Part shown: in pieces, positions 46,629 to 49,972 of the stretch | Layout: each line of letters starts with the position of its first letter | How positions within the stretch are numbered: position 1 is the first letter of the stretch | NCBI GenBank assembly: GCA_040218735.1 | Contig: JAVJQW010000062.1 | Span: forward strand, 96,001-160,000 | Origin: Deltaproteobacteria bacterium | GTDB lineage: Bacteria > Myxococcota > Kuafuiibacteriia > Kuafuiibacteriales > Kuafuiibacteriaceae | Direction of reading: 5' to 3' | Length of the DNA: 64,000 nucleotides | Position numbers and translations under genes: made by a program | The notes under the pieces: model-generated | Database searches by the model: none | Told to the model about the DNA's origin: nothing | Seen by the model: only the letters and a program-made list of their open reading frames with translations

Positions 46629-48470
<1,842 letters not shown>

Positions 48471-48474
48471 CGCG

Positions 48475-48519
48475 AAAAGAAAAAAGGCGCCGTGACCACG
48501 TCCTGTAGGTCACGGCGCC
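48475..48519 (-). terminator. Intrinsic terminator of the 48653-49804 transcript
   Basis: 12-bp stem ggcgccgtgacc/ggtcacggcgcc followed by a U tract on the - strand. Confidence 0.85.
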
Positions 48520-48640
48520 CAAGAGAAACACGAAGCGCGCGCGGGCAGCCACACACCACGAGTTTTGTTCGGACTTCCTGTCCGCGTCGCCCGGCGAGGC
48601 CTCCTGGCCCTGCGCGCGACGTCCCTCCTCCTGGAGGGGA
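48486..48640 (-). ncRNA. 3'-UTR array of four AGGA-loop hairpins (CsrB/Rsm-like CsrA-binding RNA candidate)
   Basis: CCCUCC-AGGA-GGAGGG; GGCC-AGGA-GGCC; CGGAC-AGGAA-GUCCG; terminator apex AC-AGGAC-GU. Confidence 0.6.
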
Positions 48641-48652
48641 TTGAAGCGTTGA

Positions 48653-49804
48653 TTAACGGCCGATCGACTGGATGATGTTCTTGGCCGTCTCGTTGTACTT
48701 GTCGATGATCTGCCGGAGCATGTCGAACATCTGCGAGCGCTTGTCGATGAGGCGCTTGAGCTTCATCGTCTCGACGTCGATGGACGGGCTGGAGCCACCC
48801 CCACCCTTGCCGCCGCCCTTACCGCCGCCTTTGCCGCCGCCCTTTCCACCACCGCTCTGCTGCTGCTGCAGATCGTTGATGTAGTTGGCCATCGCCTCGA
48901 TCTCCTTATCCATCTTCTTCATGATGGCCATGATCAGGAGCGTGACCTTGTCCTCGACGGTAAGGCTCGAGTCGTTGAGGATCGCGGACGTGTCGAGCCC
49001 GTGATCGTTCATGCCGAACGCGCCCTGCGCGGGGTGCGGCGCGCCGTTGCTGTGCGGGCCGCCGGTGTTCCAGTTCCCACCACCGTTCTGCGCGTTGCCC
49101 TGGCCGGGCAGACCGCGGAACCAGTCGGACAGGAGCGACTCGCCACCGATGCCGGAGCCGTTGCCGCTCCCGCTCACATTCCCGCCGCCGAGCAGGTTCG
49201 CGAGCGCGCCCATCATCACCGCGGGGAACGCCATGAACGGCGGCAGGCCCATGCCGGCCGCGGCCTGCGCGAACTGGTCGAGGAACTGCAGCGCCTGGTT
49301 GGTCGCCTGCGAGTGCTGGCCGCCGGCCGGCGCGTAGCCGCGCGGGAACGGGAGGACCGTCATGCGGCCGTCGTTGCGGCCGTCGGGGATGATGTGCCCG
49401 CCGAGCATCATCTCGACCTGCTGACGCGCAAAGGGGTCGTTCGCGAGGAGGCGCTCGAACTGACGCCCCTGCTGGCGGTTCATGATGCCCTCGAAGAAGC
49501 CCTGGCCGGGACGCGCACCAAAGTCGAACGACTGCGGCGGCGCGTACATGCCGGCGGCGGGGCTGCCGGAGTAGGCGTTCGGCGGAATCATCGCGCCCTG
49601 GGCGGGGATGCCTCCGGTCTGGAGGAGGTTCGCGAGCGCGTTGGCACCGAACGAGCCGGCGGCCATCATGAAGCTATCGCGCAGCCCCTGCATGAAGGCC
49701 GGGTTGCCCTGGAACTGCTGCAGCTGATCGAAGAAGCCGTCGACGTTGAAGCCGAGCGCGCGCAGCAGGTGGGAGCCGCCGAGTAGATTCGTGTTCCAGA
49801 CCAT
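48653..49804 (-). CDS. Gly/Gln/Met-rich protein with a C-terminal helical hairpin resembling T3SS filament/needle subunits
   Basis: Strong AAAGGAG RBS; no signal peptide; ...KLKRLIDKRSQMFDMLRQIIDKYNETAKNIIQSIGR*; (GGGK)4 loop. Confidence 0.8.
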   Translation of the reverse strand: MVWNTNLLGGSHLLRALGFNVDGFFDQLQQFQGNPAFMQGLRDSFMMAAGSFGANALANLLQTGGIPAQGAMIPPNAYSGSPAAGMYAPPQSFDFGARPGQGFFEGIMNRQQGRQFERLLANDPFARQQVEMMLGGHIIPDGRNDGRMTVLPFPRGYAPAGGQHSQATNQALQFLDQFAQAAAGMGLPPFMAFPAVMMGALANLLGGGNVSGSGNGSGIGGESLLSDWFRGLPGQGNAQNGGGNWNTGGPHSNGAPHPAQGAFGMNDHGLDTSAILNDSSLTVEDKVTLLIMAIMKKMDKEIEAMANYINDLQQQQSGGGKGGGKGGGKGGGKGGGGSSPSIDVETMKLKRLIDKRSQMFDMLRQIIDKYNETAKNIIQSIGR

Positions 49805-49824
49805 GAGTGTCTCCTTTGCCCTTT

Positions 49825-49848
49825 CGTCGCCCCATCCTGTGAGCGACG
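49825..49848 (-). promoter_or_regulatory. 5'-UTR hairpin with a CsrA-type loop
   Basis: CGUCGCUC-ACAGGAUG-GGGCGACG just upstream of the SD. Confidence 0.6.
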
Positions 49849-49859
49849 CCCCTCTCTAG

Positions 49860-49876
49860 AGCAGGCGCCGTGCCAA
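49860..49876 (-). promoter_or_regulatory. Sigma-54 (-24/-12) promoter
   Basis: TTGGCACGGCGCCTGCT versus consensus TGGCAC-N5-TTGCW. Confidence 0.8.
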
Positions 49877-49972
49877 CAGGCGGAGGGCCCATATCTCGGA
49901 TCGCGCGCCCTCCGTTCACTTGCAGTGCGCACCCGAACAGGTGCAACTCTGCCCACTGCACCCAACTCGTGT

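Follow-up and report, generated by a model that had tools for sequence, protein, structure and literature searches.

A sigma-54-type gene with a candidate CsrA leader and a downstream array of GGA-loop hairpins, from a Myxococcota protein family linked to type III secretion

The window analysed here is a 64-kb stretch of a Myxococcota genome (G000, 11.6 Mb), and all coordinates are positions of this window unless a contig is named. The gene under study, on the minus strand, has a coding sequence (CDS) at 48653..49804 that starts with ATG and encodes a protein of 383 aa; its neighbours are an SDR gene and, downstream, the gene of an ABC exporter. The absence of an N-terminal hydrophobic signal from this open reading frame (ORF) and the GGA in its Shine-Dalgarno (SD) sequence can be read directly from the DNA, and every feature listed in an earlier annotation based on the same letters (the sequence-only reading) was found on the minus strand where that annotation had placed it. 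The sequence-only reading had proposed a flagellin-style control, made up of a sigma-54 promoter, a CsrA-type leader and a built-in RNA sponge. The interpretation that we arrive at is that of a sigma-54 gene from a family tied to the type III secretion system (T3SS), with a CsrA-type leader and an RsmW-like array; as a whole we hold it with about as much confidence as doubt. Homologues for comparison were taken from 13 genomes of the host's taxonomic family, at 15 loci where the match spans essentially the whole protein; these genomes are related rather than independent, and the numbers are small.

The sequence TGGCACGGCGCCTGCT at 49860..49875 (minus strand) reads TGGCAC-N5-CTGCT and carries the -24 GG and the -12 GC of a sigma-54 promoter. 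Relative to TGGCAC-N5-TTGCW the spacing of GG and GC is exact and there is one mismatch, in the -12 element. As a match to TGGCAC-N5-YTGCW, TGGCACGGCGCCTGCT is the only one in the window, where 0.02 would be expected, and a match of any kind was present in 2 of 100 shuffled sequences. Within 250 nt upstream of the start codon the pattern TGGY-N8-TGC is found on the sense strand of 14 of the 15 homologues and on the antisense strand of none (0/15), and the distance from the -12 C to the ATG is 43-80 nt in 12 homologues, with outliers at 150 nt and 14 nt. Farther upstream, in the region 45-100 nt from the -24 element, lies a candidate site for an enhancer-binding protein (upstream activator site, UAS; 49921..49960, minus strand), with the form TGCA-N11-TGCA-N17-TGCA. 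In the windows from -130 to -40 upstream of the -24 element of 14 loci TGCA is enriched 12-fold (34 occurrences per 1,260 nt, as compared with 125 per 54,770 nt elsewhere in the loci), and a strict palindrome, TGCAC-N6-10-GTGCA, which we take to resemble an NtrC-type site, occurs in 4 of the 15 loci and not at all in 56,509 nt of control sequence. The genome encodes rpoN (contig C9), the paralogues on contigs C14 and C50 are preceded by the same type of promoter (TGGC-N8-(T/G)TGC), and the C50 paralogue is two genes away from the gene of a PspF/NtrC-type AAA+ protein, a sigma-54 activator. The lone match in the window, the contrast between strands and the conserved TGCA-rich UAS bear out the promoter claimed by the sequence-only reading, which we regard, with little room for doubt, as established as far as sequence can do so.

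From the -12 GC we infer a start of the RNA at about 49849. A predicted hairpin with an 8-bp stem (CGUCGCUC/GGGCGACG) occupies 49825..49848 (minus strand) and begins 1 nt past this start; its loop, ACAGGAUG (49833-49840), is the first predicted CsrA site. The second is the SD, AAAGGAG (49811..49817, minus strand, with GGAG at 49811-49814), which is 6 nt from the ATG at 49804. Loop and SD are separated by 22 nt, a distance that a single CsrA dimer could span, giving a two-GGA layout with one GGA in a loop and the other in the SD. In the mechanism that we propose, sigma-54 and its activator would drive a gene whose family is specific to Myxococcota and connected with non-flagellar type III secretion; the mRNA would begin with the predicted hairpin that displays CAGGAUG in its loop and would carry the second GGA in the SD, and a CsrA dimer could block ribosome binding through both GGA sites, as it does on flagellin mRNAs.

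For the comparison of leaders we folded 13 predicted 5' untranslated regions (UTRs), with the RNA start set 12 nt past the -12 C; L036, which is without the sigma-54 pattern, and L049, whose predicted UTR measures 5 nt and whose start codon is probably mis-assigned, were left out of the count. Of the 13 UTRs, 8 open with a GGA-loop hairpin whose stem has 4 bp or more, where 1.13 would be expected from 300 dinucleotide shuffles of each. The stems vary between genera (CGUCGCUC, GCUGCC, CUGCC, UGGCC), while the loop motif and its position are kept; the stems were misaligned by MAFFT, and their comparison is offered without a formal covariation count. When the genomes are sorted by the presence of csrA, the hairpin is found in 8 of the 11 that have the gene; the two where csrA was not found (91% and 93% complete) are both without it. 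The recurrence of the hairpin on differing stem sequences thus agrees with the CsrA-type leader of the sequence-only reading. Repression through the leader has also to be weighed against some less favorable results: the 5' hairpin is ordinary as a fold (z = -1.69, with 11 of 200 shuffles equally stable), it is missing at L026, L029 and L043, all in csrA-positive genomes, and among the paralogues of the T3SS-cluster clade described below a GGA-loop hairpin was seen in just 3 of the 8 examined. Taken together, the layout and its recurrence make repression by CsrA through the leader moderately probable.

This layout is reminiscent of the flaA mRNA of Campylobacter jejuni, for which Dugar et al. 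2016 (PMC4894983) describe a 45-nt UTR with two ANGGA stem-loops, the second over the ribosome-binding site (RBS), and a GGA just inside the ORF. For the 383-aa gene, too, the predicted UTR measures about 45 nt, with a GGA hairpin close to its 5' end and another GGA at the RBS, and a further GGA follows just inside the ORF, in a genome where both csrA and fliW are present; by analogy, its mRNA could be both a target and a titrant of CsrA. It differs from flaA in that it is no flagellin gene, that its second GGA is outside any predicted hairpin loop, that the additional predicted CsrA sites are located past the stop codon instead of in the leader, and that its promoter is of the sigma-54 type, whereas flaA of C. 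jejuni has a sigma-28 promoter. The hag/CsrA/FliW system of Bacillus subtilis is a related flagellin system. In G000 itself, the leader of flagellin-1 has a predicted hairpin with the loop AAGGA over its SD. A regulon scan for an AGGA hairpin followed by a GGA-containing SD and a start codon returned 106 candidates, many of them spurious ORFs, which include FlgD, FlgE, a protein of the T3SS cluster on contig C70 and the paralogue on contig C23.

A search of the genome for csrA, fliW, rpoN and the sct/fli export genes found the first three and several of the export genes. The csrA gene is single-copy (68.6 bits, cut-off 27), and its product of 78 aa has a length that presumably fits a FliW-type CsrA with a C-terminal extension; fliW is directly 3' of csrA, and the pair is away from the flagellar clusters. 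In the bacterial family as a whole csrA is present in 17 of 20 genomes. G000 also encodes flagellins, FlgD, FlgE and FliA, together with six full-length FlhA/SctV (FHIPEP) genes and a partial one, distributed over contigs C23, C59, C41, C70, C38, C9 and C16. Two types of FliW can be recognized in the bacterial family when L077-L081 are compared with L018 and L082-L095, one encoded next to csrA and the other between flgL and the flagellin genes (genera g2 and g5); G000 has the csrA-linked type alone. In genome G003 (96% complete) csrA and fliW are present and flagellin was not found; the protein family has seven matches in this genome, all of them confined to the N-terminal half of the profile.

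The 178 nt that follow the TAA stop codon form a fold of -89.3 kcal/mol (z = -3.96), and none of 200 shuffles was as stable. In the direction of transcription, and always on the minus strand, this fold consists of a hairpin CCCUCC-AGGA-GGAGGG with loop AGGA (48623..48638), a hairpin GGGCC-AGGA-GGCCU, also with loop AGGA (48597..48610), within a longer helix at 48585-48621, a hairpin CGGAC-AGGAA-GUCCG with loop AGGAA (48570..48584), a hairpin without GGA whose loop is GCUGCCCG and which is 100% identical in the sister genome (48526..48565), and a terminator-like element (48471..48520) in which a hairpin with a 13-bp stem and AGGAC in the loop (48485-48520) is followed by UUUUUUCUUUU. With its GC-rich stem and its U-tract (U6CU4) the last element has the attributes of an intrinsic terminator; a simple consensus scan omits it, as its loop and bulge are outside the rules of the scan. 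The region contains 7 GGA triplets, 4 of them in hairpin loops if the terminator loop is included. The three GGA-loop hairpins and the GGA-loop terminator would provide four more potential CsrA sites, CsrA binding being their most likely use; the array would then titrate CsrA, as a sponge within or derived from the 3' UTR, or set the transcription or translation that reaches the ABC-exporter gene. In a metatranscriptome, a contig of 138 nt (depth 3) that stems from a related strain covers 48555-48689, and thus the end of the CDS and hairpins 1-3; it shows neither RNA ends nor levels, carry-over of DNA is possible, and the 5' UTR and the terminator are not covered.

Among the 4,227 families of Rfam the best match of the array is RsmW (RF02809, of the Csr/Rsm clan CL00106), with 25.7 bits and an E-value of 0.087 over the full length of the model, and RsmW is again the best Rfam match in the syntenic spacer of one locus of genus g7 (26.3 bits, E = 0.43). 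A scan of the genome with RF02809, in which 150 of about 16,511 candidates were scored, did not return the window's own site and is thus uninformative on other copies. RsmW of Pseudomonas aeruginosa is described as a processing product of the 3' UTR that belongs to the ORF upstream of it, with 7 GGA motifs (PMC4950607). The array resembles it as a GGA-rich structured RNA directly past an ORF, with a GGA-loop terminator and 7 GGA triplets, and differs from it in belonging to another phylum, in having no Gac context and in preceding a co-oriented gene.

The frequency of such hairpins in the genome at large was estimated with a strict scan, which accepted AGGA only if all four bases were in a loop no longer than 8 nt on a stem of 5 or more pairs: 7,249 of 93,393 AGGA are in hairpin loops by this definition, that is 7.8%, in comparison to 6.9-8.6% for control tetramers. 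A lax scan for GGA in loops (stem of at least 5 pairs with G-U allowed, loop of at most 10 nt) was dropped as non-discriminating, since 16% of all GGA triplets qualify. Clusters of three distinct AGGA-loop hairpins within 250 nt number 35 genome-wide, and 7 of these are outside ORFs with high G+C at third codon positions (GC3); the cluster of the window is the most compact of the 7 (69 nt). The share of AGGA in loops, the 35 clusters and the unremarkable 5' fold are also what one would see if the hairpins had no relation to CsrA and were instead GC-rich stabilizers against 5'-end-dependent decay and exonucleases, whose loops are purine-rich and SD-like. We consider this improbable, because GGA-in-loop hairpins open 8 of 13 leaders against 1.13 expected, on stems that differ, because the leader hairpin is missing from both genomes where csrA was not found, because the GGA is kept while neighbouring loop bases change between G000 and its sister genome G001 (AGGAA to AGGAU, ACAGGACGU to UCAGGAAGA), and because a second genus has an identical layout with a different sequence. 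The other apparently non-coding AGGA clusters, at C23(-)450470-450654, C23(-)129089-129334, C42(+)298810-298981, C60(+)148483-148710, C21(+)134-334 and C42(-)452465-452715, could be six further CsrA-binding RNAs or chance occurrences.

The gene of the ABC exporter (46629..48470, minus strand), which encodes an MsbA-like half-transporter of 613 aa, begins with an ATG 12 nt past the U-tract and has no evident SD; the spacer contains, on this strand, no sigma-70-like promoter that we could find. The order homologue, then ABC exporter is seen in 7 loci from 5 genera. The description of the 383-aa gene as an orphan is therefore correct in that none of the seven FHIPEP loci is on its contig, and incorrect in that an exporter gene is located 182 nt downstream, in a conserved order. 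In genera g1 (G000 and one other genome) and g7 (two genomes) the spacers are 182-282 nt long and contain 3-5 GGA-loop hairpins, and all 4 end in a terminator-like hairpin with a GGA loop and a U-rich tail; the g7 sequences cannot be aligned by eye to those of g1, and the layout is alike. Since the array is at the same time the spacer or leader in front of the exporter gene, it is equally open to being read as a CsrA-responsive intercistronic attenuator within one operon with that gene. The terminator would then keep expression of the structural gene high and that of the exporter low, and CsrA on the GGA loops, of which that of the terminator is 25-35 nt before the exporter ATG, would tune read-through or translation. 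The same-strand exporter in 7 loci, its ATG so close to the U-tract and without an SD, and the lack of a sigma-70-like promoter in the spacer are all consistent with an attenuator, and a multi-site CsrA leader that acts on termination is established for pgaA of E. coli. The three genera whose spacers have no GGA loops argue against it, as does the architecture, which is Rsm-sponge-like and has RsmW as its best Rfam match twice; at present we see an attenuator as a tentative possibility.

As to the array as a CsrA-binding module, several results pull in the other direction. Both RsmW scores are about half of the gathering score of 52 bits, and thus below threshold, and the two remaining loci with an array (L023 and L026), one of them in g7 and one in g1, gave no Rsm match at E <= 5. 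The count of AGGA-loop clusters alone is within chance for a GC-rich genome of 11.6 Mb, and it is the comparative data that single out the locus. The spacers of 3 of the 5 syntenic genera are 53-69 nt long and without GGA loops. For the array, identity between the two g1 genomes (G000 and G001) is 85-90%. The coding sequence is conserved no less well (89% aa identity), so that a constraint on the array is not demonstrated in this genus; for the spacer, identity per alignment column is 85% if a 38-nt indel, which adds a fifth GGA hairpin, is included. With respect to the conservation of GGA loops in homologues, the leader thus has it in 8 of 13 cases, and the array in 2 of the 5 genera with the same gene order. 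We regard the array as a plausible CsrA-binding module, with binding of CsrA to it, judged from motif and fold, about evenly balanced between likely and unlikely. The built-in sponge of the sequence-only reading survives as an array of GGA hairpins that is present, and has to be qualified in that the array is restricted to 2 of 5 syntenic genera and doubles as the spacer and leader of the exporter gene; a sponge function is on this account rather doubtful. The roles of sponge and attenuator are compatible with each other. As a separate observation, a stretch of 60 nt between hairpin 3 and the terminator, which takes in the hairpin without GGA, is 100% identical in both g1 genomes and its flanks are variable.

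The 383-aa protein has a poorly conserved N-terminal part, a conserved central domain (residues ~90-155), a Gly-rich stretch of low complexity, and a C-terminal region (283-382). The C-terminal 110 residues, consisting of a helix, a Gly/Lys-rich loop and a helix that ends in ...IIQSIGR, are almost invariant in the family. In the predicted structure the central domain has pLDDT values (per-residue model confidence) above 90 and the helical hairpin 283-382 values of 65-78; the mean of the full-length model is 62.5. No family was found for the protein in Pfam and NCBIfam. Sequence searches of the PDB gave only Gly-linker artefacts with the single sequence and nothing below E = 0.45 with a profile, and Foldseek with the full-length model gave nothing at E <= 0.001. 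All homologues come from Myxococcota and are proteins without a name (206 matches; 469 representative clusters for the C-terminal domain), with 2-9 copies of the family per genome, and stand-alone forms of the hairpin, 104-131 aa long, also exist. A maximum-likelihood tree of 31 full-length members, which leaves aside the shorter L041 and L048, splits off one clade, referred to here as the T3SS-cluster clade (support 99/86). A distant homologue, present as a single copy, occurs in a second Myxococcota family (40 of 54 genomes); its neighbourhood was inspected in one genome, where the gene of a 173-aa TPR protein follows and SctV is absent within 10 kb. A C-x-C motif (consensus MxxCxCxxxYAxP) precedes the central domain in most members of the family (alignment columns about 120-130), and at residues 79-86 of the 383-aa protein both of its cysteines are lost (SGSPAAGMYAPP).

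The link of this family to type III secretion comes from the T3SS-cluster clade. Its members are found in 9 genomes in a cluster that encodes, in this order, a 151-aa ORF, a 173-aa TPR protein, the family member, a 274-aa TPR protein and SctV. In G000 SctU is encoded upstream, and the family member thus sits between sctU and sctV. The SctV of the cluster scores 844 bits with the non-flagellar SctV model (cut-off 692) and fails the FlhA model; this minimal sctU...sctV cluster of G000 is flanked by a TonB-receptor gene and by alaS. The association of the sister clade with the T3SS is well supported, and for the 383-aa protein we infer it through the family.

A second line of evidence concerns the C-terminal hairpin. 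When its profile is aligned with hhalign to Myxococcota domains that match PF09392, the needle (SctF) family, the two match weakly, from C-terminus to C-terminus, over 37 columns (probability 83%, E = 9e-6), with the caveat that helical profiles of low complexity can align by composition. The likeness to SctF comprises the helix-loop-helix, a C-terminal helix that is the most conserved part, and TPR chaperone-like genes beside the paralogues; the differences are a length of about 380 aa, an N-terminal extension of 270 aa and a Gly/Lys loop, the turn of SctF being a short P-x-x-P. In 20 genomes of the bacterial family PF09392 itself was not found at E <= 0.001. A language-model protein atlas gave leads only (all <0.9), to the needle, to NolX and to a chlamydial T3SS effector family. 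From these profile comparisons a distant relationship between the conserved C-terminal hairpin and the needle domain is probable.

Other results weigh against a needle relationship and a type III role of the 383-aa protein: it has no match to PF09392 at E <= 10 and fails the Pfam threshold, a VIA-align search with the full-length model returns only generic helical hairpins (Z <= 8.9, over residues 279-383), and its gene adjoins an ABC exporter and not T3SS genes. On such grounds one can suppose that the protein is no type III substrate, but is exported by the ABC transporter in a type-I-like manner or stays inside the cell, with a C-terminal hairpin that is a generic coiled coil. The conserved synteny with the exporter, the Gly-rich sequence without a signal peptide, the generic fold matches and a contig free of T3SS genes would all agree with this supposition. 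The exporter, however, is above the cut-off of none of the type I secretion models, no membrane-fusion or outer-membrane partner is seen beside its gene, 9 genomes have the sister clade within sctU/sctV clusters that also contain TPR chaperone-like genes, the distant homologue in the second Myxococcota family is paired with a 173-aa TPR protein, and hhalign ties the last helix to needle domains; we think it rather unlikely that the protein is no type III substrate. The type-III-exported subunit of the sequence-only reading is in this sense retained for the family, through the clusters of the sister clade, while the 383-aa gene itself is away from T3SS loci, and type III export of this particular paralogue is possible, if somewhat short of likely. 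The high expression and the assembly into a polymer that the sequence-only reading also proposed stand as conjectures.

The genes of the T3SS-cluster clade have a promoter of a different kind. The motif AGCAAC-N15/16-(G)CCGATA(A/C) is present 58-152 nt upstream of the start codon in 7 of 8 loci of the clade, namely L012 (G000:C23, ~152 nt upstream of 320866), L037, L038, L039, L040, L034 and L046. CCGATA does not occur in the remaining 27,263 nt of locus sequence, nor upstream of any of the 15 sigma-54-type genes, and from its consensus we take it to be a -10 element of the sigma-28/FliA type; fliA is present in the genome, together with two paralogues near the cut-off. Judged by motif, it thus looks as if one protein family were split between sigma-28-like and sigma-54 promoters. 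In epsilon-proteobacteria flaA is under sigma-28 and flaB under sigma-54, and the split over two alternative sigma factors is alike, although the proteins considered here are not flagellins. The label of flagellin-style control is therefore apt, for a reason that goes beyond the sequence-only reading: two clades of the family appear to be under sigma-28-like and sigma-54 promoters, respectively.

The most far-reaching interpretation would see in the family an extracellular substrate, similar to a needle, a filament or a translocon, that has so far been missing from the Myxococcota T3SS, whose best-studied member has been called "needleless"; the family would be placed under the full logic of flagellin control (sigma-28-like and sigma-54 promoters, CsrA, and release by FliW or by an RsmW-like tail), with synthesis tied to export. 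The T3SS of Myxococcus xanthus is described as being without needle and translocon (PMC12075869). We put this interpretation forward as a speculation to which we attach a low probability. A partner switch in which FliW acts on the 383-aa protein has, if anything, a slimmer chance. Prediction of a complex of FliW with the C-terminal hairpin gave no answer in both runs (score 0.00), which speaks neither for nor against binding. In enteropathogenic E. coli (EPEC), CesT is reported to tie non-flagellar type III secretion to CsrA as a protein antagonist (PMC5864733); the antagonist there is an effector chaperone, whereas here the sole candidate seen is FliW.

Each of these mechanisms has a precedent, in flaA and hag, in RsmW and in CesT; what is new is their combination, along with the phylum of the host and the family of the protein. 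CsrA and FliW are known to act together on flagellins, CsrA and a chaperone on one injectisome, that of EPEC, and Rsm sponges derived from 3' UTRs are known in Pseudomonas. To our knowledge CsrA has hardly been studied in the phylum Myxococcota; the literature searched contained no paper that joins "Myxococcota" with "FliW", and a search for myxobacteria with CsrA and sigma-54 found nothing on this subject among the papers listed. If the proposed mechanism is true, the locus would be a compact model of secretion-coupled translational homeostasis beyond flagella, its array a candidate RNA antagonist within a FliW-type Csr system, and the family a set of named candidates for the exported structural parts of the myxobacterial T3SS. 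With promoter, UAS, GGA hairpin and the distribution of csrA as comparative signals, the locus lends itself to direct testing.

Elsewhere in the genome, a second SctV is found at G000:C70:142000-158000 (L052), amid small coiled-coil proteins and a calpain-family protease. This locus encodes a 169-aa protein with a weak match to the needle domain (E = 0.0013), and the gene of a 334-aa neighbour is preceded by a GGA-loop hairpin and a GGA-containing SD. Finally, DNA nearly identical to window:48300-50000 is present in metagenomes from a sponge, from aquaculture and from biofloc, which come from different studies (runs X2, X3 and X4), indicating that the organism or close strains of it are marine or associated with aquaculture.

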